Assembly: GCA_050287845.1 (NCBI GenBank)
Contig: JBNKCR010000017.1
Coordinates: forward strand, 18,186 to 82,185
Reading direction: 5' to 3'
DNA: 64,000 nucleotides
Source: Polyangia bacterium
GTDB lineage: Bacteria > Myxococcota_A > Polyangia > JAAYKL01
Shown here: positions 30,211-50,480 of the stretch, one piece after another
Position numbering within the stretch: position 1 is the stretch's first letter
Layout of the letters: every line of letters begins with the position of its first letter
Program-made: the position numbers and the translations under genes
Notes under the pieces: model-generated
Told to the model about the DNA's origin: nothing
The model's database searches: none
The model's input: only the letters and a program-made list of their open reading frames with translations

Positions 30211-30702
30211 TCAGGTGAAAAACAATAATTTGGTTATTGGTATTTGTAGCGCTGTTGATACCTTGAGAAGAGTGGACAGATTGGGAAGGCTCAGACCCTT
30301 TTCCAGACGTGCGATGTTGGGGCGTCGAATACCGGTTTCTTTGGCCAGGTCGTTTTGGGTAATGCCGCGGTCAAGGCGAGCGCACCGGATGCGTTGACCG
30401 ATGAGTTCCCCGAAATTTTCCGGATACGTTAGTGGCTCGGCGTCGGTGTTGTTGATTGCGTCCAGTTTGTCTGGTGCAGACCCGATACTGTCTTCCATTG
30501 AGGCTGCAACGTTTTCCCTGGTCCTGGTGACTGATTTGTATACTGTTTCAGTGTACCGGTGAAAAAAATCGATCGGTGGCGGGGCTACGGAAACCGTGTG
30601 CCGCGAAAAGAACAGTTCATCAAGGACGCCTTCAGCCAGTCGAATCTGCTGGATAATCCCGGCAGCTTTCTCGAGTCTGGTTTGAATCTCAATTTGATTC
30701 AT
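30211..30702 (-). CDS. XRE-family HTH regulator with unusual C-terminal placement of the HTH
   Basis: 'IGQRIRCARLDRGITQNDLAKETGIRRPNIARLEKG' is HTH_XRE, located in the last third. The N-terminal about 100 aa is unassigned. Start is the ATG at 30702 with GGAG upstream. Confidence 0.6.
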   Translation of the reverse strand: MNQIEIQTRLEKAAGIIQQIRLAEGVLDELFFSRHTVSVAPPPIDFFHRYTETVYKSVTRTRENVAASMEDSIGSAPDKLDAINNTDAEPLTYPENFGELIGQRIRCARLDRGITQNDLAKETGIRRPNIARLEKGLSLPNLSTLLKVSTALQIPITKLLFFT

Positions 30703-30706
30703 GGTT

Positions 30707-30997
30707 TCAGTCTCCGGTACTGCTGAGGTCGTCCAATTGGTCCCGCAGCCATACAAGCTCATCACAAAGTGCAGCATTGGATCGCTTTAACAATGCATAC
30801 CTGTCTTTGAGTAACTCATATTTCTGTCGGGTTGTTGTGAATTGCTCCTCAAGCTGCTCCACGACCAGGGCAAATCGCTTACTGGTGGATGGGTCGCTCT
30901 GCGCTTCATTTTTCAGGCTTACCAGCCGACTAATCACCATGGACAGGGTTTCTATTCCCATGGGATCGCTTTGGGATGTTGGGGTTATATTTTCCAT
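30707..30997 (-). CDS. small coiled-coil protein (96 aa), immediately upstream of and co-oriented with the XRE regulator
   Basis: There is a heptad-like pattern 'LEEQF...YELLKDRYALLKRSNAALCDELVWLRDQLDDL'. The gap to the next start is 4 bp, suggesting a bicistronic unit. Confidence 0.4.
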   Translation of the reverse strand: MENITPTSQSDPMGIETLSMVISRLVSLKNEAQSDPSTSKRFALVVEQLEEQFTTTRQKYELLKDRYALLKRSNAALCDELVWLRDQLDDLSSTGD

Positions 30998-34468: not shown

Positions 34469-37400
34469 ATGAAGAATCGAAATTATCTGTTGGTCATCTG
34501 GTGGACACTTTCAGTGGTGCTGGTTTCGTGTCATCCAAAGCCCAGGGTGAAAACGGATACCGAGACGACGGAAGCGCAGTCGGATTCCACGGAAATTAGA
34601 AAATTGCTGTCGTTGCCCCCCAGAACAGACGGAGATGGTCTCGTCTTTGAAATTCGGGAAGCGTCGGGGCCGTCATTGGACGCCGAAAAACCGAAACAGG
34701 TGAAAGGCGAGATCCTGGACGAAAAAACCGTGGAGAATCTGATGAAACGCACGGGCGTAACATTTACGACCGAAGCCAGAAAAAAAGATACCGTGATGAA
34801 ACGGGCAGCCACGCCGCCGCCTCAGAGAACCAGGAAAGTGGAGACTCCCCTGGGCGAAAAAAAATCGGTGCCAGAAGCGGAGGATAATGAAGCGCAGGAT
34901 AATCGGGAACTGAAGGTGGTGAGATATGCGCCGGAAGGAAATGTGGCGATGGCGCCTCACGTGAGCATTACATTTTCCAAACCGATGATTCCGGTGTCGG
35001 GTATTGCGACGGCGCAGGAACTGCCGGTCAAAATGACGCCCCTTCCGCAGGGTCGCTGGGAATGGCTGGGCACCGAAACCCTGATTTTCAGACCGAAGAC
35101 CCGATTGCCCATGGCTACCGGATATTCGGTGGAAATCCCATCGACGGTGACCTCGCTGGATGGGACCCGAATAAAGGGTTCAAAGAAATTCACATTCCAG
35201 ACACCGCCACTCCAGGTTGTCGGCAGCTATCCCACCGGAGACAGTGTGGTGCCCACTTCGCCGCTGGTACTGGCATTCAACCAGTCCATCGATCCTGAGG
35301 CGTTGATGCCCTACATTGAAGTGACTGGAAACGGTAAGGCCCAGCATGTACGAGTTGCAACGGACGATGAAGTCCGAATGATTTTTGAAAATGAACTCAT
35401 TCCCTTTGAAAAAGACCAGAAAGATCGCCTGCTCATTCTGCTGACAGAAGGGCTTATGAAAGGCGCGACGATTCAGATTCGGGTAAAGAAAAAGGCCCCT
35501 TCCGCAGAGGGCCCTATCCGTACGGACAAACAACAGACAGTGGCGTTTTCGACATATCGTCCCCTTGCAGCGGAGGCGTGTGGTTGTGGCGGTAAAAACG
35601 AATGTCGGCCAGATGAACAGGTATTTGTGAAATTCAATAATAACCTGGATTTCGATCAGTTCAGCGACGGTGATGTGACGGTGAATCCCCCCATTGAAAA
35701 CATGATGATCGGACCCGCCCATGGGGGACTGTACATCATGGGCATGAAAAATGGGAAAACTGAATATCGGGTGCAGTTGTCTGACCGTATTACCGATGTG
35801 TTCGGCCAGAAACTGGATAAAGAAAAAGAATTTACATTTACCACGACCCGGATGAAGCCGGCCCTTGTGGGAGTTGGGCAATCCATGGTGGTCCTGTCCC
35901 CCTTTTCAGAAAAGGAAATTCTTTTTCATGCGGTGAATCACGACGTCCTGAGTGTGATGGTGCATCACATGACCGAGGCAGACCTGAAACCCTGGCTGGA
36001 CTGGATGAGCGACCGGCGCCGGGGCAAAGCTGATTTGGCCGATATGCCGGGAAAAAAATTGATCGCAGAAAAAAGGCAACTGACGTCCAATGACAGATGG
36101 CAGAAAGTACCGGTAAATCTGACGCCGTATCTGGAGAATGGTTACGGACAGTTTGCTGTGGTGGTGGCGCCAGTGAACCAACCTAAAAATCACTGGCAGC
36201 GGCAGGAAGAAATCGTGTGGGTGCAGATTACCGATATCGGAATATCAACATACAAAGATGCCACTTCGCTCCACGTGGCCGCTTCTGAACTGAAAAATGG
36301 TGCGCCGCTGGCCAACGTGAAATTAAAGTTGTTTTCCGAAACGGAAGACGAACGGTCTTCCGTGCAGACAGATAAAGACGGCTATGCGCGAATGGCATTG
36401 GATGCCGACCGGTCTCTTTTTCTGACGGCGAAAAAGGGAAGTGATACGGCCATTCAATTGGCAGGTCATCCCGGCCGATTTGGCTATACGGGATTCGCCT
36501 GGACCAGTCAGGAAAGAAAAAACAGATACACCGCGTATCTGGAAACCGACCGGGGTATGTATAAACCGGGGGAAACGGTGAATGTGAAAGGATGGGTGCG
36601 GGAGATTGACGCGAACAATGGATATGCCCTGGCACCAACTACCCGACCGGTGCAAAAAATAAAATGGAAGGTGACCGGTCCGAGGGGAATTGAACTTGGA
36701 CGCGGAACAAAAACCACGAGCCAGGTGGGCGGTTTCGATTTTAAATTGAAAATTCCCGGGGATGCCAATACCGGGACCGCCTATATGGAATTGATGAATG
36801 AAAAAGGCGGTAGTATTGAATCCCGCATCTCTGGAAACGACTATTTTGAAATTCAGGAATTCAGAAAACCGGAATTCGAGGTCACGACAACTGTGAGTGA
36901 CGGACCTTATATTATTGGCGCCACTGCACAGGCAACCCTGATTGCCACATTCTACAGCGGAGAACCCCTTGGGGGAGCAGACGTGCATTGGACGGTGAGT
37001 TCGGTCAACAGTTCGTATTCACCGCCAAATCACGGGGACTTTTCATTTGGAAAATATAATCCATGGTGGGGGTATTGGACGAAGAATATGGGGGGGCGAA
37101 AAACAGAAGAAATCAGGGGGATCACCGGGGGGGACGGCGCCCACCGGGTGAATCTGCATTTCACATCCGCGCCGGACGGACAGCCTTCCCGTATGACTCT
37201 CGTGGGGACAGCCATGGATATCAATCGGCAACAGTGGTCCGGATCAACGGAATTTGTGGTGCATCCCGCGAGCCGTTATGTGGGGTTGAAGCTGGCGAAG
37301 AATTTTGTCGAAAGAAATGAATCGCTGGAGGTGAGCGCCATTGTAACCGACATAGATGGCCGACTGAGTCGTGGTGAGCAGGTGGTTCTATCACTGATGA

Positions 37401-40400
37401 AGAACAATACCAGATTCGTCAATGGCAAACGCAAAGATGAAGTGGTTACCGAAGACACCTGCGAATTCACCTCTGAAGCACAGGTACACATTTGCGTGTT
37501 CAGACCAGAGGAATCGGGAAGTTACCAGGTGATTGCCAGAACTGCCGATGACAGAAATCGAAAAGCACAGAGCGATATTCGTTTCTGGGTACGTGGCGAT
37601 GGAATGAATATCGGGGAGGTACCCACAGCAGAATCCATCTATATTATTCCCCAAAAAGATACCTTTGCGCCGAACGATAAGGCGACCATGCTGATAAAAC
37701 TGCCATTTTATCCGGCGGTGGGATTCATCACCCTGCGCAAGGGAGGCATCCGGTATCGAAAACAGGTTCGCTTTGAAAGTGACTCCGCGATGATTGAAGT
37801 GCCATTGACCGAAGCAGAAATCCCTGAGGTGAACATTCATGTGAATGTTTCGGGGGTAAAGCAGAAAAAGACTTCAGATGGAAAGCAGAAAAATAATGTG
37901 GCGTTTGCCAGTGGCATGCTGTCTCTCAAGGTATCCGCTGAAGAGAAACGACTCGATGTGGATGTGATTCCGGATAAGCAGAAGCGGGCTCCGGGAGAAT
38001 CGGCCAATGTTGTTGTAAATGTGAAAGACTCGGCGGGGCATGGGGTGTCCAATGCGGAACTGGCCATCTGGGCGGTGGATGAAGCGGTACTGGCGCTTTC
38101 GGGGTATCAGGTGAAAGATCCGGTGGATGTTTTTTACACCGCGGCCCCGGATGATGTGGTGGAAAGACACTCCCGGTCCATGGTATTGGATACGTCAAAC
38201 GCTGGATTGTCGATGGCGGATGCCCCCGGTGACGGAATTGCGATACAGTCCTTACGGAGGAAAGCGGAATCGATGCCGCGTCCGGCCCCGGCCATGGCGC
38301 CGGGTACCGGCGGGGGTGGGAAGTTGGCAAAAAATGAAGCGGCAGCTACCCCCATTGCCGTGAGAACCAACTTTGATGCCCTGGCGTTTTACGCAGCGCG
38401 ATTGACCACGGACGAAGCGGGAATGGTCCGGGTGAATTTCAGGCTGCCGGATTCTCTGACCCGCTATCGCATTGTGGCGGTGGCGGCAGATGGTGCAAAC
38501 CGTTTTGGCAATGGCGAAAGCACACAGACAACGCGGTTGCCGCTGATGATACGGCCATCGGCACCCAGATTTCTTCATCTGGGGGATAAATTTGAATTTC
38601 CAGTGGTACTTCAGAACGCCACCGACGAAGAACAGAAAGTGGATGTGGCGATTGGCGGTACCAACGTGTCTTTTGCCCCGGGATTGTCTGATTTGTCCAT
38701 GACCACGAAATCCCGATTAAAAATGGGCAAGCGGGTGACGGTATCACCGGGACAGCGGGTGGAAGTTCGTTTTCCAGCCCTTGCGCTCCATACCGGAAAA
38801 TCGCGGTTCGTGGTGGTGGGCGCATCCGCTGAATACGCTGACAGCAGTGAGTTGGTGCTGCCAGTGTGGACGCCATCAACCGTTGAAGCATTTGCCACCT
38901 ATGGTACAGTGGATGATGGCGACGTGTTGCAAAAAGTGAAGGCGCCTGAAAATATCTGGCCAGCTCAGGGTGGGCTTGAGGTGACTACCTCTTCCACCGG
39001 TCTGCAGTCTCTGGCCGATGCGTTCATTTATCTGACAGAATATCCTTATGAGTGCAGCGAACAGCTGGCGTCGAGACTGATAGCCATTGCCACTCTGAAA
39101 GACGTGGTGAAGGCATTTCGCAGCGCCGATATCCCGTCGAATGAAAAGCTGAATCAATTGGTGACATCATCCATGTTGAAGCTGGCCCAGCGACAGCAGG
39201 AAACGGGAGGTTTCGGTCTGTGGGATCGCGAAAGCCGCTCTGTCGCATATGTAGACATTCATGTGACCCATGCACTGGCCATAGCAAAGCAGAAAGGGTA
39301 CACCGTCGATGCGCAGTTACTGGAGCGCGCCCTCGTTAATCTCAGAAGTATCAACGAAAGATTGGACGGCACCATGTCGGTTGGAGGCCGAAATGCCATT
39401 TGGGCTTACGCGCTGTATGTTCGAAATTTATTGGGAGAGAAGGTGGAGGACGACGCGATTGAATTGTTGGATAGAGGCGATGAAAAATCGCTTTCCATGG
39501 AAGCCAGGGGATGGCTTCTGGAGTGCGTGAAACGGAATGAAAAATATCGCAGCCGCCTGCTGCGGGACGCACAGAACAAGGTGACCGAAACAGCGAAAAA
39601 CGCGCATTTTATCACGGGGTATACCGATGGCGATTATGTGCTGTTGCATTCGGACCGGCGGGCGGATGCCATCTGGCTGGGTGCCTTGCTGAATATCGAC
39701 CGGGACAATACACTGATTCCCAAACTGGCAAGCGGTCTGCTGGACCACCGGAAGAACGGGCGGTGGTTGAGCACCCAGGAGAATGCGTTTGTACTGATAG
39801 CCCTCGATACGTATTTCCAGCAGTATGAAAAGGAAATCCCCAATTTTGTCAGCCGTGTCTGGTTGGGCGACCGGGTGTCAATCCCCCACGGGTTCAAAGG
39901 GCGGAGCACCGAAAGTGCGTTGCTTGACGTGCCGATGAACGAGTTGGGCGGCGAAGAAAATCTGATCATCGAAAAGAACGGTCGCGGCAGAATGTATTAT
40001 CGGATTGGCATGACCTATGTGCCGGCTTCTCTCCAACTCGAAGCTGAAAATCGCGGTTTCACGGTGATGCGAAGGTATGCGGGCGTGGATGATGCCGAAG
40101 ATGTCAGGCAGGATAAAAGGGGAACGTGGCACGTGAAAGCCGGCGCGCGGGTGAAGGTTGAATTGACCATGGTGGCGCCGGAACGACGATATCATGTGGC
40201 CCTTGTGGATGAGCTGCCGGCGGGTCTGGAACCGGTGAATCCCGCACTGGCGGTGGACCGGAAACGATCGACGGAAAATTCAGGCGGACCGGCAGCGGCA
40301 AAGGGCCGGTACTGGTGGTGGCAGCGGCCCTGGTTTGAGCATCAGAATCTTCGGGATGAACGGGTGGAGGCCTTCACATCGCTCCTGTGGGATGGAGTGT

Positions 40401-40528
40401 ACACTTATAGTTACGAAGCTAAAGCCACCACTCCCGGTGAATTCGTGGCCCCGCCTGCCACCGCCCACGAAATGTACTCTCCGGAAACCTTCGGCCGCAG
40501 TGGAACTGACCGGATGATCATCGACTAG
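34469..40528 (+). CDS. bacterial alpha-2-macroglobulin family lipoprotein (about 2019 aa) with thioester motif
   Basis: Lipobox 'LVSC'. Long beta-sandwich (MG) repeat region. Thioester 'EYPYECSEQLAS' (CxEQ). C-terminal receptor-binding-type domain. Confidence 0.8.
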   Translation: MKNRNYLLVIWWTLSVVLVSCHPKPRVKTDTETTEAQSDSTEIRKLLSLPPRTDGDGLVFEIREASGPSLDAEKPKQVKGEILDEKTVENLMKRTGVTFTTEARKKDTVMKRAATPPPQRTRKVETPLGEKKSVPEAEDNEAQDNRELKVVRYAPEGNVAMAPHVSITFSKPMIPVSGIATAQELPVKMTPLPQGRWEWLGTETLIFRPKTRLPMATGYSVEIPSTVTSLDGTRIKGSKKFTFQTPPLQVVGSYPTGDSVVPTSPLVLAFNQSIDPEALMPYIEVTGNGKAQHVRVATDDEVRMIFENELIPFEKDQKDRLLILLTEGLMKGATIQIRVKKKAPSAEGPIRTDKQQTVAFSTYRPLAAEACGCGGKNECRPDEQVFVKFNNNLDFDQFSDGDVTVNPPIENMMIGPAHGGLYIMGMKNGKTEYRVQLSDRITDVFGQKLDKEKEFTFTTTRMKPALVGVGQSMVVLSPFSEKEILFHAVNHDVLSVMVHHMTEADLKPWLDWMSDRRRGKADLADMPGKKLIAEKRQLTSNDRWQKVPVNLTPYLENGYGQFAVVVAPVNQPKNHWQRQEEIVWVQITDIGISTYKDATSLHVAASELKNGAPLANVKLKLFSETEDERSSVQTDKDGYARMALDADRSLFLTAKKGSDTAIQLAGHPGRFGYTGFAWTSQERKNRYTAYLETDRGMYKPGETVNVKGWVREIDANNGYALAPTTRPVQKIKWKVTGPRGIELGRGTKTTSQVGGFDFKLKIPGDANTGTAYMELMNEKGGSIESRISGNDYFEIQEFRKPEFEVTTTVSDGPYIIGATAQATLIATFYSGEPLGGADVHWTVSSVNSSYSPPNHGDFSFGKYNPWWGYWTKNMGGRKTEEIRGITGGDGAHRVNLHFTSAPDGQPSRMTLVGTAMDINRQQWSGSTEFVVHPASRYVGLKLAKNFVERNESLEVSAIVTDIDGRLSRGEQVVLSLMKNNTRFVNGKRKDEVVTEDTCEFTSEAQVHICVFRPEESGSYQVIARTADDRNRKAQSDIRFWVRGDGMNIGEVPTAESIYIIPQKDTFAPNDKATMLIKLPFYPAVGFITLRKGGIRYRKQVRFESDSAMIEVPLTEAEIPEVNIHVNVSGVKQKKTSDGKQKNNVAFASGMLSLKVSAEEKRLDVDVIPDKQKRAPGESANVVVNVKDSAGHGVSNAELAIWAVDEAVLALSGYQVKDPVDVFYTAAPDDVVERHSRSMVLDTSNAGLSMADAPGDGIAIQSLRRKAESMPRPAPAMAPGTGGGGKLAKNEAAATPIAVRTNFDALAFYAARLTTDEAGMVRVNFRLPDSLTRYRIVAVAADGANRFGNGESTQTTRLPLMIRPSAPRFLHLGDKFEFPVVLQNATDEEQKVDVAIGGTNVSFAPGLSDLSMTTKSRLKMGKRVTVSPGQRVEVRFPALALHTGKSRFVVVGASAEYADSSELVLPVWTPSTVEAFATYGTVDDGDVLQKVKAPENIWPAQGGLEVTTSSTGLQSLADAFIYLTEYPYECSEQLASRLIAIATLKDVVKAFRSADIPSNEKLNQLVTSSMLKLAQRQQETGGFGLWDRESRSVAYVDIHVTHALAIAKQKGYTVDAQLLERALVNLRSINERLDGTMSVGGRNAIWAYALYVRNLLGEKVEDDAIELLDRGDEKSLSMEARGWLLECVKRNEKYRSRLLRDAQNKVTETAKNAHFITGYTDGDYVLLHSDRRADAIWLGALLNIDRDNTLIPKLASGLLDHRKNGRWLSTQENAFVLIALDTYFQQYEKEIPNFVSRVWLGDRVSIPHGFKGRSTESALLDVPMNELGGEENLIIEKNGRGRMYYRIGMTYVPASLQLEAENRGFTVMRRYAGVDDAEDVRQDKRGTWHVKAGARVKVELTMVAPERRYHVALVDELPAGLEPVNPALAVDRKRSTENSGGPAAAKGRYWWWQRPWFEHQNLRDERVEAFTSLLWDGVYTYSYEAKATTPGEFVAPPATAHEMYSPETFGRSGTDRMIID

Positions 40529-40695: not shown

Positions 40696-40975
40696 GAGAT
40701 TCGTAACCCTTTTTTTTCATTTGAAGCCGCCTATATGGATTGAAATGATATACAAATACACTGCCGACGGTTAGTATCGGGCATTCATGATTTTATAAGT
40801 GAGTATTCGTAACGGGAGTTTGCGATTAAGGAACCGGCGAAATACGTGCTGTGTGTTGGCATCCGAAAAAGCGAGCGTAAAATAAATTCGAAACACGAAT
40901 TAGCGCGTATAACGCGTATAGAAGTAAACATAGTACGTATAGAATTGGAAAAAACGAGCGTAAAACGAGCGTAAC
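40696..40975. repeat. cluster of short direct repeats upstream of hsdR (GAGCGTAAAA x3, CGCGTATA x2, ACGTATAGA x2, ATTCGTAAC x2)
   Basis: Read directly in the sequence. It is the left boundary of the R-M block, with a T9 run at about 40703-40711. Confidence 0.45.
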
Positions 40976-41005: not shown

Positions 41006-43828
41006 ATGGAAAAGATTCCATATTCAGAAGCGGAAACCCGTCAGCAGCTTATTGATAAATCCCTGGCGCTGGCCGGGTGGAACGTGAACGATCCCTCTCA
41101 GGTAATACAGGAACTTGACATCTATATAGAGAACGTGGCCGTATCAAAAGTGGCCGACCCTTCCACGCCGTACCGGGGGCATAACTTCGCAGACTATGCG
41201 CTGATGATGGAAGGGAAACCCATCGCGGTTATTGAAGCCAAAAGAACATCCAAAGATGCACGGGCCGGGCAGGAGCAGGCGCTGCAATATGCGCAGAAGC
41301 TGCAACAGATTCATGGCGTTCTGATGCCGTTTGTGTTTTACACTAACGGATACGAAACATTTTTTTGGGAAGTGGACTTTTACCCGCCGGTGAGAGTGTA
41401 TGGCTTTCCAACATTTAAAGACCTTCACTGGATGGACGAACGGCGTAAAAGCCGCAATCCCATGTCGGTTGAAATGATCAACCAGAATATTTCCGGCCGA
41501 GGGTATCAGCTGGAAGCCATCCGCTCTGTTCTTGAGAGTATTGAAAAAAAGCGAAGAGATTTTTTACTGGTCATGGCCACCGGTACCGGAAAAACCCGTA
41601 CCGCCATGGGAATGCTTGATGTGATTATTCGTGCCCACTGGGCCAAACGGGTATTGTTTCTGGTGGATCGCATTGCCCTTGGAGATCAGGCGCTGGATGC
41701 ATTCAGGGAACACATTCCCGCCGCGCCATCGTGGCCGCAAAAAAACGAACGGGATTTCACACCAAACCGCCGCGTTTATGTAACCACCTACCCAACAATG
41801 CTGAACCTGATTGAAAAGGGCACTACGCCACAGGATTGGATTTCGCCGTTCTTTTTCGATGTCATCGTGGCAGATGAGTCCCACCGAAGCATTTACAACA
41901 CCTACAAACAGGTGCTCGACTATTTTAACGCTATTCGGATAGGACTCACCGCAACGCCCACAAACCACATTGACCACGACACGTTTAAACTCTTTGACTG
42001 CGATTCCCACGACCCCACGTTTGCGTATACTTTCGAGGAAGCCCTGGCACATGATCCGCCATATCTGACAGACTTCGAAGTGTTGAAAGTGCGCTCCAAG
42101 TTTCAGCTGGAAGGCATTAAGGGCGGTGTGTTGCCTCCACAGGTGCAGCGTAAGCTGGTGGCAGAGGGCAAAGATATTGAAGAGATTGATTTTGAAGGCT
42201 CCGACTTGGAACGCAAGGTGACCAACTCAGGCACCAACGCGCTGATTGTTCGGGAGTTCATGGAAGAATGCATTAAGGACGAGTCGGGATCGCTGCCTGG
42301 CAAATCCATTATCTTTGCCATTTCCATGGCTCACGCCCGACGAATTCAGGAGCTGTTCGACCGAATGTATCCGGAGCACAAAGGCCAATTGGCGCGGGTG
42401 ATTGTGTCTCAGGAAAAATTTGTACACAGCAAAGGCGGTCTGCTCGACCAGTTCAAAAATCAGGATATGCCCCGGGTAGCCATCTCGGTGGACATGCTGG
42501 ATACGGGGGTGGATGTTCGAGAGATTGTAAATCTGGTGTTTGCCAAGCCGGTGTATTCGTATGTGAAGTTCTGGCAAATGATTGGTCGAGGCACCCGAGT
42601 ACTTGATGACGACCCCGCCAAACGCAAACCATGGTGTCGCCATAAAGACAAGTTCCTTATCATTGATTGCTGGTCAAATTTTGAGTTTTTCAAGATGCAG
42701 CCCGAGGGAAAAGAGCCAGGGGCGCAAACCCCAATGGCGGTAAAGCTGTTCACCAAACGGCTTGATAAGCTGGAAGCCGCCTTTGCTGTTGAACGCACCG
42801 ATGTGGTGGAAGCCGTTGTCAGCGATTTGAAAGCAGACCTTGCCACGCTGCCACAAAATAATGTGGTTGTAAGCGAAGCGCGCAAGGAACTCTCCAGAGT
42901 ACGCGACGACCAATTTTGGACAACGTTGTCACCATCGGATCTGGGATTCCTAAGAAACAACGTGGCCCCGGTGTTGCGCGCGCGGCCGGGAATCGATATT
43001 AAAGCCATGCGCTTTGAAACCGAAGCGGTGGAACTGGGCACCGCGCTGCTTGCGGAAAACGCAGACCAGGTCACCGCCATTCGCGACAGTCTTATCGCGC
43101 AAATTGACGAACTGCCCCTTTCTGTGAATGTGGTGGTCAGAGAAAAAGAGCTGATTGAACAGACTAAAGAAACTGCCTTCTGGGCAACGCCAACCGAAGA
43201 CAAAATCCGCTCATTGGTCAGCGCGCTGTCGCCACTGATGAGATTCCGCCAGCGAAAAACCGAATCGTTCATGACGCTGGATATTGAAGACCTCACAGTG
43301 GTGAAAGACTGGATTGAGTTCGGTCCCGAAAACGAGCGGATGTCCACCCGTGCGTACAGGGAAAGAGTTGAGCAGTATGTGCGCGATTTGGTGGAACAGA
43401 ATCCGGTGGTGGCCAAAATCGCCAATGGTGAAGAAGTAGGCGAAACCGAAATCATGGCCCTGGCGCGCACTCTGAAAGACCACGACCCCCAAGTCACCGA
43501 AGAGTTACTGCGTAAAGTATACGATCACAAAACTGCCCGCTTCATCCAGTTCATCAAACACATCCTCGGCCTCGAAAAACTGGAATCCTGGCAGGAATCC
43601 GTAAACCACAAATTCGAAGCGTTCATCGCCGAACACAATACGTTTACTGCACTGCAAATCCGCTTTTTGCAGACCCTGAAAACGTTCATTCTGCAAACCG
43701 GAAAAGTAGAAAGAAAAGACCTGATAGCAGCGCCGTTTACCCAGATTCATCCCAGTGGCGTGCGCGGTGTTTTCAATGCTGGGGAGATTGAAGAAATCCT
43801 GAATTTCTCCAGCGGATTTGTAGCGTAA
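41006..43828 (+). CDS. hsdR: Type I restriction enzyme R subunit
   Basis: N-terminal 'SEAETRQQLIDKSL' (HsdR_N type). PD-(D/E)xK-like 'DYAL...IAVIEAKR'. Helicase motif I 'MATGTGKT' and motif II 'VADESH'. 940 aa. Confidence 0.8.
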   Translation: MEKIPYSEAETRQQLIDKSLALAGWNVNDPSQVIQELDIYIENVAVSKVADPSTPYRGHNFADYALMMEGKPIAVIEAKRTSKDARAGQEQALQYAQKLQQIHGVLMPFVFYTNGYETFFWEVDFYPPVRVYGFPTFKDLHWMDERRKSRNPMSVEMINQNISGRGYQLEAIRSVLESIEKKRRDFLLVMATGTGKTRTAMGMLDVIIRAHWAKRVLFLVDRIALGDQALDAFREHIPAAPSWPQKNERDFTPNRRVYVTTYPTMLNLIEKGTTPQDWISPFFFDVIVADESHRSIYNTYKQVLDYFNAIRIGLTATPTNHIDHDTFKLFDCDSHDPTFAYTFEEALAHDPPYLTDFEVLKVRSKFQLEGIKGGVLPPQVQRKLVAEGKDIEEIDFEGSDLERKVTNSGTNALIVREFMEECIKDESGSLPGKSIIFAISMAHARRIQELFDRMYPEHKGQLARVIVSQEKFVHSKGGLLDQFKNQDMPRVAISVDMLDTGVDVREIVNLVFAKPVYSYVKFWQMIGRGTRVLDDDPAKRKPWCRHKDKFLIIDCWSNFEFFKMQPEGKEPGAQTPMAVKLFTKRLDKLEAAFAVERTDVVEAVVSDLKADLATLPQNNVVVSEARKELSRVRDDQFWTTLSPSDLGFLRNNVAPVLRARPGIDIKAMRFETEAVELGTALLAENADQVTAIRDSLIAQIDELPLSVNVVVREKELIEQTKETAFWATPTEDKIRSLVSALSPLMRFRQRKTESFMTLDIEDLTVVKDWIEFGPENERMSTRAYRERVEQYVRDLVEQNPVVAKIANGEEVGETEIMALARTLKDHDPQVTEELLRKVYDHKTARFIQFIKHILGLEKLESWQESVNHKFEAFIAEHNTFTALQIRFLQTLKTFILQTGKVERKDLIAAPFTQIHPSGVRGVFNAGEIEEILNFSSGFVA

Positions 43829-43885: not shown

Positions 43886-43920
43886 AAACATGGTAATAAC
43901 CAGTTGATATTACCATGTTT
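43886..43920 (+). promoter_or_regulatory. perfect 13-bp inverted repeat (AAACATGGTAATA-N9-TATTACCATGTTT) whose right arm contains the fic start codon
   Basis: Arms at 43886-43898 and 43908-43920. The fic ATG is at 43915-43917, inside the right arm. Confidence 0.5.
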
Positions 43921-45009
43921 AACGAGTACATTACCACTATTCAAAAGGTGGAAAAATTGAACTCGATTGACTATAAAATATTGAAATCATTAGTTTTAAG
44001 TGTGGAACAGGCGTCGGCGATGCGGGCGATTGGGGAGTACAAGGGTCGGCAGGAGCTGTATACCCGGCAGACACCCGAAGTGCTGGAGTCCCTGAAAGAG
44101 GTTGCCGTTATTGAATCCACGGAGTCGTCCAATCGGCTGGAGGGGATTGAAGCGCCTCACCAGCGGGTAGAGGCCATTGTAAAAAAGAGCACCCAGCCCA
44201 GGGACCGCTCTGAGCAGGAAATCGCCGGGTATCAGGATGCGCTGGCCATGATTCATGAATCGGCCCAGTACATGCCATTTAGCCCCAATGTGATTCAGCA
44301 GCTTCACTCCACCATTTATCGGTACCACGTTAGCGATGGCGGCAAGTGGAAGCCCACTGACAATTCCATTGTGGAAAAGGATAGTGCGGGAAATATCACC
44401 CGCGTGCGGTTTGAAACGGTAAGCGCGGTGGAAACCCCTGGCGCAATGGAGCGACTTGGAAGCCTGTACAAAACAGCGTCGGAAAGTCACGACCTGGAAG
44501 CGCTGATACTGGTGCCGCTCACGGTGCTCGATTTTTTGTGCATTCACCCGTTTAGAGATGGCAATGGCCGAGTGGGTCGGCTGATTACGTTAATGCTTTT
44601 GTATCAGCATGGTTTCGAAGTGGGCCGGTACATCAGCCTGGAGCGCATCATCGAGGAATCGAAAGAATCGTACTACCGCACTCTCGAAAAGAGTTCTATC
44701 GGCTGGCACAAAGCAGAGCACGATCCCATGCCTTGGCTGGAGTATTTTTGGGGGATGCTGATAAAGGCCTACAAAGAATTTGAAGACCGCGTGGGAAATG
44801 TGCGCACCGGTAAGGGTTCAAAAACAGATCACGTGCGCGAAGCGGTGAGCAGGCGTATGCGCCCCTTTGCCATCTCGGAAATAGTAGTGGATTGCCCCGG
44901 GGTGAGCATGGACATGATTCGAATTGTACTGCGCAAAATGAGAGATGAAGGATTGCTTATCCAGGAGGGTACCGGTCGCGGTGCCAAGTGGATAAGGAAG
45001 ATGGATTGA
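43915..45009 (+). CDS. fic: Fic family protein, class II (intramolecular inhibitory motif)
   Basis: Fic motif 'HPFRDGNGRVGR'. N-terminal inhibitory [S/T]xxxE[G/N] motif 'SNRLEG'. C-terminal winged-helix-like segment. Confidence 0.85.
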   Translation: MFNEYITTIQKVEKLNSIDYKILKSLVLSVEQASAMRAIGEYKGRQELYTRQTPEVLESLKEVAVIESTESSNRLEGIEAPHQRVEAIVKKSTQPRDRSEQEIAGYQDALAMIHESAQYMPFSPNVIQQLHSTIYRYHVSDGGKWKPTDNSIVEKDSAGNITRVRFETVSAVETPGAMERLGSLYKTASESHDLEALILVPLTVLDFLCIHPFRDGNGRVGRLITLMLLYQHGFEVGRYISLERIIEESKESYYRTLEKSSIGWHKAEHDPMPWLEYFWGMLIKAYKEFEDRVGNVRTGKGSKTDHVREAVSRRMRPFAISEIVVDCPGVSMDMIRIVLRKMRDEGLLIQEGTGRGAKWIRKMD

Positions 45010-45029: not shown

Positions 45030-46553
45030 ATGCTGACACAAACACTCAAATCAAAAATAGACTCCCTCTGGGACAAATTCTGGTCGGGGGGTATCGCCAA
45101 TCCGTTGACTGTGATGGAACAAATCTCCTACCTGCTCTTTATGCACAGGCTGGATGCGGCCGATTTGAAACGCAAAGCAGATGCGGAATGGCTGGGTGAA
45201 AAGTACACTTCGGTATTTGAAGGCAACGAAGAGTGCCGCTGGTCACGGTTTCGGCATAAGCCACCGGAAGAGATGCTCACCCATGTGCAAAACGACGTGT
45301 TTCCGTTTATTAAAAACATGAAAAACGGCGGGCAGCGCTTTTCGCATCACATGAAAGATGCGGTGTTCATTATTCCCAAGCCGTCGCTGCTTGCCGAGGC
45401 GGTTGATGTCATCGATGAGATTTATGCTGAAATTGAGCGGGAGCGTTCCGAGCAGGGGCAAAGCTTTCACGACACCCAGGGCGACCTGTACGAATATTTG
45501 CTTTCGGAGATATCATCCGCCGGTAAAAACGGGCAGTTTCGCACCCCCAGGCACATTATTCAAATGATGTGTCATCTGGTAAACCCCAAACTGGGTGAGA
45601 CCATTTGCGACCCCGCATGCGGCACGGGCGGCTTTTTGCTGGGCGCGTTTCAACATATACTCACTCAACACACCAGCGACAAGCTGCGCTGGCAGGACGA
45701 AAACAGCATGACCAAGGGCCCGGCAGGCGACAAGCTGACGGACCAGCGCCAGTGGGAGGTGCTGCGCAACAAAACATTTTATGGCTACGATTTTGACAGC
45801 ACCATGGTGCGCATCGGCATCATGAACCTGATGCTGCACGGCGTGGATAGCCCCAATCTGGATTACAAAGATACCCTTTCTAAAAGATACGATGAGCAGG
45901 AATGCTACGACGTATGCCTGGCCAATCCGCCGTTCAAGGGCAGCATTGACAAAGGCGACATCAACGAAGCACTGGCTTTAAAAACAACTAAAATAGAGCT
46001 GTTGTTTGTCAACCGCATCATCAATCTGCTGCGCATCGGCGGCAGGTCGGCCGTCATTGTGCCCGACGGCGTGCTCTTTGGTTCAAGCAAGGCCCACAAG
46101 GATTTGCGCAAAATGCTCATTGAAACCTGCGAGCTGCAGGGTGTAGTGTCTATGCCGTCGGGGGTGTTCAAGCCATACGCAGGTGTATCCACGGGGGTGC
46201 TGGTATTTGTAAAAGGCGGCGAAACCGAAAACGTGTGGTTCTACGACATGCAGGCTGACGGCCGTTCCCTGGATGATAAGCGCGATAAAATCGACCAGAA
46301 CGATATTCCCGACATCACCCAAAAATGGGCCAAACGGGATCCCAAAAAAGATACCGACCGCACAAAGAAAGCCTTCTTCGTGCCAGTGCAGGACATCATC
46401 GACAACAACTACGATCTGTCCATTAACCGGTACAAAGAAATCGAATACGAAGAAGTGGAATACGAGCCGCCCAAAGAGATTTTGAAAAAGCTACGCGCTT
46501 TGGAAAAAGAAATATCAAGCGACCTTGATGAGCTGGAGAAGATGTTGGGATGA
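45030..46553 (+). CDS. hsdM: Type I restriction-modification system methyltransferase subunit
   Basis: N6-MTase motifs 'DPACGTGGFLL' (AdoMet) and 'LANPPFKG' (NPPF). 507 aa. Confidence 0.9.
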   Translation: MLTQTLKSKIDSLWDKFWSGGIANPLTVMEQISYLLFMHRLDAADLKRKADAEWLGEKYTSVFEGNEECRWSRFRHKPPEEMLTHVQNDVFPFIKNMKNGGQRFSHHMKDAVFIIPKPSLLAEAVDVIDEIYAEIERERSEQGQSFHDTQGDLYEYLLSEISSAGKNGQFRTPRHIIQMMCHLVNPKLGETICDPACGTGGFLLGAFQHILTQHTSDKLRWQDENSMTKGPAGDKLTDQRQWEVLRNKTFYGYDFDSTMVRIGIMNLMLHGVDSPNLDYKDTLSKRYDEQECYDVCLANPPFKGSIDKGDINEALALKTTKIELLFVNRIINLLRIGGRSAVIVPDGVLFGSSKAHKDLRKMLIETCELQGVVSMPSGVFKPYAGVSTGVLVFVKGGETENVWFYDMQADGRSLDDKRDKIDQNDIPDITQKWAKRDPKKDTDRTKKAFFVPVQDIIDNNYDLSINRYKEIEYEEVEYEPPKEILKKLRALEKEISSDLDELEKMLG

Positions 46554-47731
46554 GTTTTCCATCACCTGGACATTGGGAAGAGGTTCAATTTGACCAAGTT
46601 GCGCAGGTCATCACGGGCTGTACACCGTCGACTAAATCGACTTCGTACTACGGTGGTGACATTCCGTTCATCGGCCCTGCTGATCTAGGAACAATGACGC
46701 CCATCTGTTCCAGCGCAAAGATGCTTACTCAGGCTGGGGCTGAGAAGGCACGAATGCTGCCGGTCGGAGCGGTATTAGTCTGTTGCATTGGAGCCACAAT
46801 CGGGAAAGTTGGAATAACCGGTACTCGCTTGGCTACAAATCAGCAAATAAATGCACTCATCTTTGATGAGGATCGAGTCGTTCCCCGCTATGGGCTCCAT
46901 TTCTGCCGAACTATAGAATTTGTGTTTCGCCATTTAAGTTCGTCTACGACATTACCTTTGCTACCGAAAAGTCGCTTCGCAGAAGTAAAGATCCCTCTCC
47001 CCCCACTTGCCGAACAAAAACGCATTGCCGCCATTCTCGACAAAGCCGACGCCATTCGCAAAAAGCGCAAACAGGCCATTGAACTGACAGAACAACTCCT
47101 GCGCGCCACATTCCTGGAAATGTTTGGGGACCCGGTGACGAACCCGAAGGGGTGGGATGTGGTGGAGCTATCAAAACTTGCAATAAAAATAACAGATGGA
47201 ACCCACAAAACCCCAAAATACACGGCATCTGGAATGCGATTCATAAGTGCGAAAAACATACGATCCAACGGTATTGACTGGAGCGATATCAAATATATCA
47301 CGCCCGAAGAGCACGCAGAGTTATATAAAAGATGTAATCCGCAACGAGAAGATATCGTTTTGTCAAAAAGTGGCTCGATTGGCACTGCAGTGAAAATTGA
47401 CGTTGATTTTGAATTTAGTCTATTCGAAAGCGCAGCTCTAATTAAACTCAAACCCAATTCCATATCAGCAGATTTTTTAACTGCATTGTTGAACACGGAT
47501 GGTTTTCGGCGATTGTATATACGAAGTACGAAGGGAGTTGCTGTAAAACATCTCCACCTAAATGAAATTCGCTCTTTGCCTATCATTATTCCATCACTCA
47601 ATATTCAAAAGTGTTTCGAGGATGTGTCGCAGCGGCTTGCTCATTTATCTAATAAACTTCATACAATTTGTCTCACAACAGAAGCCAATTTTTTGAGTCT
47701 CCAACAAAGGGCTTTCGCAGGTCGCATTTAA
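46550..47731 (+). CDS. hsdS: Type I restriction-modification system specificity subunit
   Basis: Two target-recognition halves separated by the conserved 'LPPLAEQKRIAAILDKADAIRKKRKQ' helix. ATGA overlap with hsdM. Lower GC than hsdR/hsdM. Confidence 0.8.
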   Translation: MSFPSPGHWEEVQFDQVAQVITGCTPSTKSTSYYGGDIPFIGPADLGTMTPICSSAKMLTQAGAEKARMLPVGAVLVCCIGATIGKVGITGTRLATNQQINALIFDEDRVVPRYGLHFCRTIEFVFRHLSSSTTLPLLPKSRFAEVKIPLPPLAEQKRIAAILDKADAIRKKRKQAIELTEQLLRATFLEMFGDPVTNPKGWDVVELSKLAIKITDGTHKTPKYTASGMRFISAKNIRSNGIDWSDIKYITPEEHAELYKRCNPQREDIVLSKSGSIGTAVKIDVDFEFSLFESAALIKLKPNSISADFLTALLNTDGFRRLYIRSTKGVAVKHLHLNEIRSLPIIIPSLNIQKCFEDVSQRLAHLSNKLHTICLTTEANFLSLQQRAFAGRI

Positions 47732-47751
47732 AATAAAAAACGAGGACAGCA

Positions 47752-48942
47752 ATGGGAATGGTCAAAAACGAATGGATGGAAGCTCAAGAGCGTGGATACT
47801 GCGATCTGGAAGGAGATGTATGTATTCATTGTATGGATGATGAAGACCTCCGCGTTTTGCATAGGGAACATCAAACAGGTTTAGGCACCTGTGAGTTCTG
47901 TGAAAAAGAAAATGTTGAAGTAGCTCCAGCCGAAGTGATTCAGGAACGAATAATGAACACGCTTGGCAAATATTATGTTGATATCCAATACTCCGGTTCC
48001 CCTTATATTTCAAGGGAAGGTGGTTGGCTTATCTCTAACGATGACGCGTCAACGATCGTTGACAATTATTTAGCCTGCAATGTTAGTGACGAATTTTGTA
48101 ACGCTGTTGTCAACGCCACCATGGACGAATTGTGGTGTGAATCGAATTGGGACATACTGTCTCCCCTGAAGAAGTTGAAATACGGATGGGAAGAATTTCG
48201 CCATATAGTGAAACATGTTCAGCGATTTTCTTTTGCATGGTCAAACGATGGAGAAGAAGTGTGGCATCCTGACCATACCAATCCGCGCGTGACCCTGGAG
48301 AGGGTCGGCGAACTCGTCAAGAAATACAAATTGCTGAAGACAGTTCCTGCAGGTACACAAATTTGTCGTGTTCGTGTCGATAAAAATACCTTTTACTCTT
48401 CGATGCCCGACATTGGAGTACCACCATCAAGTGCATCAAACGCCAGCAGAATGAGCCCCGCTGGAATCTCCATGTTTTATGGCGCAGTCGATTTTGAAAC
48501 TGCAATAAAGGAAACATGGGATGAACAGAATACCGCTCACTGTTCAATGGGATTATTCCGTTTAAAAAAGAACATTAGCGTGGTTGATTACAGCAGTATC
48601 CCCGTAGTACCGGGTTTCTGGAGTGACATCGAACGCCAAAAAAGAGAAGAAATATTGTTTCTTCACCAGCTGGCCGATGATTTTTCCAAACCTATTAGTC
48701 GAGGGGCGAAAGTAGATCTGGAGTATGCACCTACCCAAATCGTCGCAGAGTTTTTAATGAAATCTCCTTTTTTACAAACTGACAGGACGAACCCAATAAC
48801 GGGCCTACTTTTCAGTAGCAGCAAAACCGGAAAACAAAATTTCGTGCTAAACCTTGTGCATTCAACAGATTCAAAGCTCGGGAATAAGCAGGACGACTTT
48901 CTGGATCTCATTCAAGTGTCTACGAAAGTGCTGATACCATAG
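47752..48942 (+). CDS. zinc-ribbon-like N-terminal domain fused to a RES-like domain (candidate NAD+-targeting toxin/effector), 20 bp downstream of hsdS
   Basis: N-terminal 'CIHC...CEFC' in a treble-clef arrangement. The C-terminal half has 'SRMSPAGISMFYGAVDFETAIKE', resembling the RES core (R-x-N/S-P...Y-x-A...E). Low GC. Confidence 0.5.
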   Translation: MGMVKNEWMEAQERGYCDLEGDVCIHCMDDEDLRVLHREHQTGLGTCEFCEKENVEVAPAEVIQERIMNTLGKYYVDIQYSGSPYISREGGWLISNDDASTIVDNYLACNVSDEFCNAVVNATMDELWCESNWDILSPLKKLKYGWEEFRHIVKHVQRFSFAWSNDGEEVWHPDHTNPRVTLERVGELVKKYKLLKTVPAGTQICRVRVDKNTFYSSMPDIGVPPSSASNASRMSPAGISMFYGAVDFETAIKETWDEQNTAHCSMGLFRLKKNISVVDYSSIPVVPGFWSDIERQKREEILFLHQLADDFSKPISRGAKVDLEYAPTQIVAEFLMKSPFLQTDRTNPITGLLFSSSKTGKQNFVLNLVHSTDSKLGNKQDDFLDLIQVSTKVLIP

Positions 48943-48977: not shown

Positions 48978-49976
48978 CTATTTCAGTCCGCACCGCTCCC
49001 GCAACCTCTCAAACAGATCGGCGCTGATGAATCCAGCCTGCTTTTGCTCCAGCAAAGAATTCATGGTTTTCCGTTGTGATGGAGTCTCCGACATAGTCAC
49101 TGGTGCCGTCCGCGTTTGGAACTCTATCACCGTCTGCTCTTTGTCGTCGGGAACCGCTGACACACTCAACTTAGGCAAAATCTCCTTTCTCGCCGTATGC
49201 CACCGTTCCTCTTTAATAAGACTCCCCCACCTGGCGCACCAGTAGTTCCAGTTAATCCCCGTCGGCACTGTCCCTGGAATTCTGTTTTCAAACAGCTCAT
49301 ATCGCGCTCGGCTCAGCTGTGCTTTCCTCTCATGGCCTTTTTGAGCCAGCAAATATGCCAGGGTGTTAAAAATCATCTGCTTGATGTCCAGGCGTGTTGG
49401 TGGGCGGAGTGGGGTTGTGAATGGGATAGGTGCTAACTGTTCCGCGCCCGTTCGAGACGCTTCGCTCCTCAGGACAGCGGAACCTTTCGATGCTTTAACG
49501 ATGGGACGTGTCGAAAATCCCTGTGGTCCCTTTGCCAAAGGGACATGTGCTGGTTGTTTTTCTTTGCTGGGGCCTGCTGAGTGCGTTTCTTTTTGCTGTG
49601 ATTTTGATTTGTCGATAGTTGGGACACCAGTTCGATTCCCGGTTTGGGAATCCAATTGCTTTTTGGCGTCATGCTTCGCAACTACCCGTTTATCAACATC
49701 GTTTCGCGTGCGCTCGGTACTCTGATTAAAAGAATCAGGTATCTTAGGTTTGTCAGTGCGACTTTTTGTCGTGGGTATACAAGTGTGGGTGTTCCCCTTT
49801 GGAATGCTCCAGATGTTCAATGCTTTTTCGGTCAATGTGCAGCTGCAAATCTGTTCGCATTTGTGGTTGTCTGGCCCCGGCTGGATGATGCGCTCCAGGT
49901 CTGCTGGTAAGATTGTTGAAAATTGGTTTGAAATCGTTTCACAATGGAATATGATGAACGAATCCGATGTGGTCAT
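48978..49976 (-). CDS. hypothetical protein: disordered Lys/Ser/Thr/Pro-rich N-terminal half, globular C-terminal about 130 aa of unknown family
   Basis: 332-aa ORF convergent with the RES-like gene. No motif recognised. It lies in low-GC DNA. Confidence 0.35.
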   Translation of the reverse strand: MTTSDSFIIFHCETISNQFSTILPADLERIIQPGPDNHKCEQICSCTLTEKALNIWSIPKGNTHTCIPTTKSRTDKPKIPDSFNQSTERTRNDVDKRVVAKHDAKKQLDSQTGNRTGVPTIDKSKSQQKETHSAGPSKEKQPAHVPLAKGPQGFSTRPIVKASKGSAVLRSEASRTGAEQLAPIPFTTPLRPPTRLDIKQMIFNTLAYLLAQKGHERKAQLSRARYELFENRIPGTVPTGINWNYWCARWGSLIKEERWHTARKEILPKLSVSAVPDDKEQTVIEFQTRTAPVTMSETPSQRKTMNSLLEQKQAGFISADLFERLRERCGLK

Positions 49977-50037
49977 ATGGTTTCAGAACCCCCGGATGTT
50001 GCAGCGGAAAATTTATTGAACCGCGAAGGAAAACATT

Positions 50038-50057
50038 GTGCAACCGGTTGCACTTTT
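50038..50057 (+). terminator. perfect 16-bp palindrome GTGCAACCGGTTGCAC followed by TTTT (terminator-like on + strand, or operator upstream of the minus-strand 332-aa gene)
   Basis: Read directly. It sits 60 bp upstream of the 49976 start codon of the minus-strand ORF. Confidence 0.35.
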
Positions 50058-50480
50058 CAGGAAAAAACAGCCTGATTCTTGTTTTTACTATTAATTTCAA
50101 CGATTTAAACAATCTGATAAAAAATTCAAAATACGATACAGTATCGGTTGAATCTCAATTGAGGCGAATTTTGAGGTGTGTTTCCGTGACGGTTCCCGCC
50201 CCATTCACGGACTCCTCAGGGTACTCGCCTTCCCGGGGATGAGTGCGGTTTGCAAATCATGTCTGTTTCCTGATAACCACCTTTGTCTCGTGATATTTTC
50301 GGGAAAATTTTATCGGTGCCTGGTGGGCAACTGATGGATGTGTATGCAGTTTTCCTTTTATTGTGGGCCCTTTTTCTTTTTTTTTTTATCACTGGATAAA
50401 ATCAATGCGCTGTTGTGATTTTTCATTTACAGTGTTTCCGGTGAAATTTTGTTTCGTTTTATGAAAGGGTAAATTGCCCC

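Follow-up and report, generated by a model that had tools for sequence, protein, structure and literature searches.

A likely aRES-type gene at the end of a type I restriction–modification array in a Polyangia bacterium

Gene array and start site

The window that we analyzed, a 64,000-nucleotide stretch of contig JBNKCR010000017.1 (assembly GCA_050287845.1, Polyangia bacterium), contains an array of five genes on the same strand: hsdR (41006–43828, +), a SoFic-like Fic gene (43915–45009, +; PADLOC SoFic, 3e-37), hsdM (45030–46553, +), hsdS (46550–47731, +), and, in the last position, a gene of the aRES type (47752..48942, +) that encodes a protein of 396 aa. The first four genes are identified by Pfam and PADLOC matches, and the last gene is recognized as an open reading frame with an ATG start and matches to Pfam PF18870 and PF08808, giving the architecture ZnR + HEPN/RES-NTD1 + RES. 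The genes are separated by 86, 20, −4, and 20 bp, the last value being the distance from the hsdS stop to the start of the aRES-like gene. Upstream of hsdR, at 40856–40883, there is a promoter-like site, and no terminator-like site was found in the 20-bp gap between hsdS and the aRES-like gene, which has probably been appended to the type I restriction–modification (R-M) operon and is probably co-transcribed with it. The GC fraction is 0.42–0.44 in the aRES-like gene, 0.40–0.44 when the 3′ half of hsdS is included, and 0.50–0.57 in the flanks, which are of a housekeeping nature: the upstream flank encodes a 2019-aa alpha-2-macroglobulin and the downstream flank a sigma-54 activator as well as heme biosynthesis proteins. 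The array from hsdR to the aRES-like gene is a small horizontally acquired defense island.

A GAGGA Shine–Dalgarno-like site (47742..47746, +), read directly from the sequence, precedes the ATG of the 396-aa reading frame by 5 nt. The choice of this start is supported by the N-termini of homologs, which line up from M1 of the protein (consensus MGxxKxxxxExxxRGY). The sequence comes from the MAG of an uncultured organism. A contig of another MAG assembly, GCA_050288445.1, is identical to the window, and a called gene there encodes the identical protein.

In agreement with the initial annotation, no antitoxin-like gene lies beside the aRES-like gene, which is flanked by hsdS upstream and by a convergent ORF downstream. 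We considered this 332-aa ORF as a potential partner and rejected it, as it is an orphan with no family match and no homolog but itself. The XRE regulator that had been reported 17 kb away is an HTH_3 protein (30211–30777, −), the product of the nearest HTH_3 gene and unrelated to the system.

The aRES proteins were described by Osterman et al. (Sorek lab), in a preprint dated 28 January 2026 (10.64898/2026.01.28.702374), as standalone proteins of 300–600 aa that combine a RES domain with PF18870 and are encoded in defense islands; RES is printed there as PF00808, presumably a typographical error for PF08808. The 396-aa protein is likewise standalone, contains both PF08808 and PF18870, and falls within this range of lengths.

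Domain architecture and conserved residues

The N-terminal 60 residues contain two CxxC pairs that had already been pointed out, C24-I-H-C27 and C47-E-F-C50, with a distance of 23 residues between the first and third cysteines, near the earlier estimate of about 25. Both pairs are conserved in a multiple sequence alignment of 66 homologs (23–47% identical) and delimit a candidate Cys4 zinc-binding segment, Cys3His in some relatives, at residues 22–59 (47815..47928, +). C24, C47, and C50 are each present in 66/66 sequences and position 27 is a cysteine in 56/66 and a histidine in 10/66; this exchange is a ligand swap typical of a zinc site, and the conservation of the two motifs exceeds chance by far. 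The same four ligands recur without exception in the three validated aRES proteins, and the segment is modeled with a pLDDT of 98. Based on this pattern of conservation, we predict that the two CxxC knuckles form a metal site with four conserved ligands. A match to the DnaI zinc domain in a PDB sequence search (E 0.018) was weak and is not relied on here.

The initial annotation described a two-module protein, and both of its modules, the zinc site and RES, are retained in our analysis; however, it missed the HEPN/RES N-terminal domain 1 (PF18870) at residues 44–163 (47881..48240, +; 86.9 bits in hmmscan, cut-off 27.4, E 1.9e-24), and the architecture hence consists of three modules. W128, W146, F149, and R158 of this domain are conserved in the homolog alignment. 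Residues 1–195 modeled alone fold confidently (pLDDT 91), and fold searches of the PDB and of predicted structures of viral proteins (BFVD) returned no match to this model. A word-indexed homolog search with the same residues returned zero matches and an exhaustive HMMER search returned 669 representative clusters. We scanned 112 full-length proteins matching this region, namely the window protein and 111 from the best 150 matches, and found RES in 111 of them; HEPN-fused relatives, which would represent an effector swap, were not recovered among the 112. The near-uniform presence of RES implies that the N-terminal module, in its zinc-site form, is tied to this domain. The fusion of NTD1 to HEPN is taken from the literature alone, where Table 2 of Anantharaman et al. 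2013 (PMC3710099) defines the HEPN/RES-NTD1 domain by its fusion to either HEPN or RES.

The RES catalytic domain, a member of the ART superfamily, occupies residues 195–396 (48334..48939, +), of which residues 222–367 match PF08808 (39.7 bits, cut-off 23.2, E 6.6e-10); this call was made with hmmscan, and the aRES preprint used HHsearch at >80% probability. Point mutations of the predicted RES active site abolish defense by aRES (Osterman et al. 2026), which allows the conserved residues to be compared with probed ones. The window protein aligns with the E. coli UC5 aRES, whose sequence we took from Table S4 of the preprint, at 22% identity over 345 columns (E 2e-13), and all six residues mutated in UC5 are kept. 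The arginines of the first RES strand, R206-V-R208 (48367..48375, +), align with UC5 R182 and R184, are present in 66/66 and 63/66 homologs, respectively, and presumably occupy a position analogous to R27 of MbcT. The RES core motif SRMSPAGISMFYGAVDFETAIKE at residues 232–254 (48445..48513, +), which the initial annotation had matched to the RES pattern, contains R233, Y243, and E254, aligned with UC5 R215, Y225, and E236; these three residues, together with G238 and I239, are invariant in the 66 homologs, and the 10/21 spacing of R233-Y243-E254 matches that of R47-Y58-E69 in MbcT at 11/22. Downstream, S356 (48817..48819, +), the "S" of the R-E-S triad, is also found in 66/66 sequences and aligns with UC5 S334. 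A further motif, Y325-A-P-T-Q329 (48724..48738, +), is identified from the alignment as specific to the family and belongs to a helical insert within RES; Y325, T328, and Q329 show no exceptions, P327 is present in 65/66 sequences, and counterparts of the motif occur in validated aRES (DYLITQ) and in plasmid forms.

The AlphaFold2 model of the full protein has a mean pLDDT of 93 and a pTM of 0.88, the latter suggesting that the domains are packed in a fixed arrangement. The four top PDB matches in Foldseek are all RES-family toxins, ParT (6d0i and 6d0h), VPA0770 (8gug), and the P. putida RES (9r35), with probabilities of 0.75–0.98, target-normalized TM-scores of 0.45–0.50, and E-values of 5e-3 to 7e-2, followed by PARP-type ADP-ribosyltransferase domains. 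Because these E-values are modest, the fold evidence is moderate and backs the Pfam match, which is above the gathering cut-off, rather than standing alone; together, the two agree with the RES fold that had been proposed for the C-terminal domain. Searches of the PDB by sequence with the full protein, with a profile of the 66 sequences, and with the C-terminal domain reached no RES toxin.

Phosphorolysis of NAD+ by RES domains is established for MbcT and NatT. After infection with T7, cells expressing aRES are depleted of NAD+ and accumulate nicotinamide as well as ADPR-1″-phosphate (ADPR-1P), the production of which was observed both in vivo and in lysates (Osterman et al. 2026). The "NADase-like" activity that had been suggested for the window protein thus holds insofar as the RES domain is predicted to consume NAD+; however, the chemistry demonstrated for aRES is a phosphorolysis and not a simple hydrolysis. 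The phosphorolytic chemistry and the defense phenotype have been shown for relatives, and we extend both to the 396-aa protein conditionally, based on homology and conserved residues. The structural ranking could instead be taken to favor a ParT-like activity, in which RES would act as an NAD+-dependent ADP-ribosyltransferase on a specific host or phage macromolecule (the target of ParT itself is phosphoribosyl-pyrophosphate synthetase) with no bulk depletion of NAD+: RES belongs within the ART superfamily, and the two best matches, 6d0i and 6d0h, reach a probability of 0.98 in comparison to 0.75 for the NAD+-degrading P. putida RES. We consider this activity unlikely, because the Foldseek scores among RES structures are too close to separate these chemistries, the window protein keeps the aRES active-site residues, and the validated relatives with the same two domains deplete NAD+ and make ADPR-1P. 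Phosphorolysis of NAD+, as in aRES, is the activity that we prefer.

Relatives and their gene neighborhoods

A search of a collection of 5.8 billion proteins yielded 73 full-length homologs, all with PF18870 and RES and nearly all ~400 aa in length, which NCBI names "HEPN-associated N-terminal domain-containing protein" or "RES domain-containing protein"; PGAP gives the ~400-aa "short-form" relatives the first of these names or "hypothetical." Scanning one genome per species, we found relatives in at least 534 species of Pseudomonadota, Bacteroidota, Bacillota, Actinomycetota, Planctomycetota, Acidobacteriota, and other phyla. NCBIfam and PADLOC-DB (2023) contain no model that matches the 396-aa protein. 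Relatives are also encoded on 166 plasmids, 121 of which are conjugative; those on E. coli IncI plasmids sit amid the maintenance genes repA, parA, and parM, and one on a Vibrio plasmid is flanked by Hhe and AbiH. Plasmid genes annotated as "RES family NAD+ phosphorylase" encode proteins with ~30% identity to the window protein. Phage genomes are nearly devoid of relatives, with one partial RES match in 50,697 phage records.

We surveyed 80 related loci with 10-kb flanks, clustering the ORFs within 4 kb, for the conserved partner ORF that the initial annotation had named as evidence against its reading. No conserved partner gene was found across the 80 loci, and the most broadly shared neighbor belongs to one syntenic Bacteroidota group (16/80). 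A 191-aa ORF that abuts the gene in Bacteroidota was rejected as a partner; it is part of a long syntenic block and its adjacency therefore says nothing specific. Xre-type HTH (HTH_3) proteins are encoded in just 2/76 upstream neighbors. The neighborhoods are mixed in content and qualitatively enriched in defense genes, including those for mREase (methyl-directed restriction enzymes), LmuA, AbiH, AbiC, GajB, RmrA, DRT reverse transcriptases, DpdF, SoFic, and Mrr, and the closest relatives adjoin GmrSD, a ScoMcrA-like gene, or an integrase. In tblastn searches with the window proteins, which for HsdM, HsdS, and HsdR see relatives detectable at E ≤ 1e-5, an HsdM-like gene was present within 10 kb in 1/80 loci, an HsdR-like gene in 1/80, and a Fic gene in 2/80, and the closest relatives of the 396-aa protein have no HsdM-like gene nearby. 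We therefore reject coupling to type I R-M systems as a trait of the family, and the link to HsdM and HsdS that had been raised earlier finds no support at this level.

These counts also bear on whether the aRES-like gene is a guard of its own R-M system, similar to PrrC, with HsdM, HsdS, and HsdR holding the RES protein inactive until a phage anti-restriction protein releases it. Such an arrangement would account for a gene on the same strand, 20 bp past hsdS and separated from it by a gap with no terminator-like site. The 2013 HEPN survey also lists many effectors embedded in R-M loci, often with Fic/Doc, and PF18870 is common to such HEPN proteins (PMC3710099). However, a guard of this kind is at odds with the single HsdM-like gene in 80 loci and with its absence from the closest relatives. 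E. coli MG1655 carries a type I system of its own. The observation that aRES proteins are active when expressed alone in this strain (Osterman et al. 2026), which otherwise counts against a guard, is for this reason not airtight, and we give the guard a slim chance, slightly below that of a ParT-like activity. The least probable alternative is a cis-fused toxin–antitoxin or addiction module, in which the N-terminal region would be a covalent antitoxin and the role of the protein would be the stability of a mobile element or plasmid and not defense; the 166 plasmids (121 conjugative), the IncI copies near repA, parA, and parM, and the status of canonical RES proteins as toxins of toxin–antitoxin systems would fit this, but neither Pfam nor the fold search links the N-terminal module to the Xre, MbcA, and ParS antitoxins (present in the PDB as complexes), a fused antitoxin is unable to give post-segregational killing via differential stability, and experiments have demonstrated phage defense by aRES (Osterman et al. 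2026).

Function and comparison with known systems

We conclude that the 396-aa protein is likely to be a divergent member of aRES, that is, a single-polypeptide anti-phage system of the abortive-infection type. This assignment is supported by the two Pfam domains, the 73 homologs with the same architecture, the RES-like model, the six conserved residues, and the lack of a conserved neighbor, and further by the defense neighbors, the low GC content, and the phenotypes in the preprint; it is weakened by the 22% identity to UC5, the short form of the protein, ParT as its best structural match, and the lack of a PADLOC or NCBIfam model. Three aRES proteins were cloned in E. coli, where they protect against diverse phages and arrest growth, and homologs of aRES are present in ~4% of genomes; phages counter the system either by supplementing NARP1 with a Macro-domain phosphatase or by means of aRad1 inhibitors (Osterman et al. 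2026, 10.64898/2026.01.28.702374). The preprint reports nothing on the trigger, on zinc, or on the N-terminal domain.

We hypothesize the following sequence of events for the window protein. In the uninfected cell, the RES enzyme would be held off, most likely by the N-terminal zinc-site/NTD1 module packed against the RES domain as a brake. Phage infection would provide some cue that switches the enzyme on, and the RES domain would then cut the nicotinamide–ribose bond of NAD+ with phosphate as the nucleophile, so that the collapse of NAD+ would stop growth and prevent phage replication. The gene would work in this manner with no antitoxin or partner gene. The N-terminal module may be both brake and signal receiver. 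The earlier proposal that an N-terminal domain takes the place of an antitoxin agrees with the scarcity of Xre genes and the lack of a partner in the 80 loci and with the activity of aRES proteins of the same domain composition expressed alone; its second part, the role of this domain as a sensor, is one that we infer.

A more specific form of this mechanism would make the NTD1 module a direct infection sensor that, at this locus, monitors SoFic or the integrity of the type I R-M complex encoded alongside it, with RES firing once a phage anti-restriction factor disables restriction. We regard this form as doubtful, to the same degree as the guard discussed above; if true, it would be a RES-based, NAD+-depleting analog of the PrrC–EcoprrI guard. 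For aRES as a whole, how infection is sensed is a question at the level of the family and not of the locus, and the invariant zinc site together with W128, W146, F149, and R158 are the obvious candidates for this function. The window protein is informative, as a divergent member that keeps both the probed catalytic residues and the four zinc ligands helps to define the essentials of the family. For annotation, the window gene and its "short-form" relatives of ~400 aa can be labeled aRES-like anti-phage NAD+ phosphorylases.

The ZnR + NTD1 + RES type of protein is already known, computationally from 2013 and Pfam and functionally from the 2026 preprint. Anantharaman et al. (2013, PMC3710099) described the architecture in silico; that description was purely computational, and RES was then guessed to be a potential RNase. 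In addition to the catalytic residues, the window protein and the three validated aRES proteins have in common the N-terminal CxxC...CxxC pair, and its likeness to aRES extends to the Y-x-(P/I)-T-Q motif and to placement among defense genes. However, at 396 aa it is shorter than the tested aRES (at least 399 aa) and the enterobacterial plasmid forms (499–500 aa), and in comparison to the three tested proteins this "short" form has an extra N-terminal helix (residues 1–20) and lacks the C-terminal extension of ~100 aa. Its PF18870 score of 87 bits is much higher than those of the two validated aRES that were scanned (21 and 41 bits). The aRES genes, each cloned and expressed alone, are not operonically associated with other genes (Osterman et al. 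2026), unlike the window gene, which shares an operon-like array with the genes of a type I R-M system.

The RES-Xre toxins (MbcT/MbcA, NatT/NatR, ParT/ParS, and the P. putida system) share with the window protein the catalytic fold and the R...Y...E...S residues and use NAD+ as substrate. In contrast to the window protein, which is twice as long, composed of three modules, and carries a helical insert of ~45 residues with the YxPTQ motif in its RES domain, these toxins are ~150–200 aa in length, and each is neutralized by an Xre/DUF2384 antitoxin encoded next to it, which acts in trans by plugging the active site; the window locus does not have such a gene. Because it has neither the small size nor the adjacent antitoxin of this class, the protein should not be filed as a toxin of a toxin–antitoxin system. 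The likeness to PrrC, RloC, and other effectors embedded in type I R-M loci is that a suicide-type effector shares its array with hsdR, hsdM, and hsdS, here with a Fic gene as well, which has also been noted at PrrC-type loci; however, the linkage to R-M is not conserved in the family of the window protein, and its effector is an NAD+-consuming RES domain with no ABC-ATPase, in place of the HEPN anticodon nuclease.

Gene neighborhood of the aRES gene

The defense island is bordered on its left by the gene directly upstream, which encodes a bacterial alpha-2-macroglobulin of 2019 aa (34469–40528, plus strand; MG2, A2M, bMG3, and bMG10 domains in the annotation of the record). The SoFic-like Fic/DOC gene (43915–45009, plus strand; 364 aa; PADLOC SoFic, 3e-37; Pfam Fic, 2.3e-12) is flanked in the window by hsdR and hsdM and constitutes a third defense-type gene of the hsd/aRES array. 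Convergent to this array is an ORF of 332 aa (48978–49976, minus strand) for which the NCBI record contains a gene call; it has no matches in Pfam, NCBIfam, or PADLOC, and its sole match among 5.8 billion proteins is itself. The region after this ORF is a non-coding stretch of approximately 500 bp with a low GC content of 0.40–0.43 (49977–50480). The ORF could be an orphan specific to this lineage or a spurious gene call at the edge of the island. The XRE-type gene of the window (30211–30777, minus strand) adjoins a sulfatase gene and encodes a protein with a C-terminal HTH (residues 126–185), preceded by approximately 125 residues without a family match; this gene has no relation to the RES gene.

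Relatives on plasmids and in Bacteroidota

A related gene of 499–500 aa, annotated as "RES family NAD+ phosphorylase," occurs on conjugative plasmids of E. coli, Shigella, and Klebsiella, as exemplified by an E. coli IncI plasmid (NZ_CP124821.1; locus L087, 6323–7822), where the maintenance genes repA, parA, and parM are close to it, and a K. pneumoniae IncFII plasmid (locus L085, 1826–3328). Based on Pfam, the architecture of the window protein (ZnR, PF18870, and RES) is shared by the Klebsiella copy. None of these RES genes is adjoined by an Xre gene on these E. coli, Shigella, and Klebsiella plasmids. RES corresponds to PF08808 in the Pfam copy used for the window protein, and the accession PF00808 printed in the Methods of the aRES preprint (bioRxiv 10.64898/2026.01.28.702374) is probably a misprint.

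The Bacteroidota aRES homologues are followed, mostly in an abutting arrangement (gap of 0 to −1 bp), by an ORF of 191 aa with a weak match to GIY-YIG (loci L020, L021, L024, L025, L031, L032, L041, L043, L053, L068, L070, L071, L073, and L078). Because these loci show synteny throughout the region, a specific functional link between the two cannot be inferred.

Two aRES forms and an insert in the RES domain

An alignment of the window protein with the validated aRES proteins reveals two forms of the family: a short form of approximately 400 aa, which includes the window protein and has an additional N-terminal helix (residues 1–20, MGxxKxxxxExxxRGY), and an enterobacterial long form of approximately 500 aa with a C-terminal extension of approximately 100 aa. 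The experimental tests of the validated proteins cover the long form only, whereas the window protein is of the short form. The RES domain of the window protein contains a helical insert of approximately 45 residues that includes an invariant Y-x-P-T-Q motif (residues 325–329; 48724–48738). As judged from the E-to-S spacing, which is 57 residues in MbcT versus 102 in the window protein, small RES toxins lack this insert; in the validated aRES proteins, a motif of the same type is also present, there as DYLITQ.
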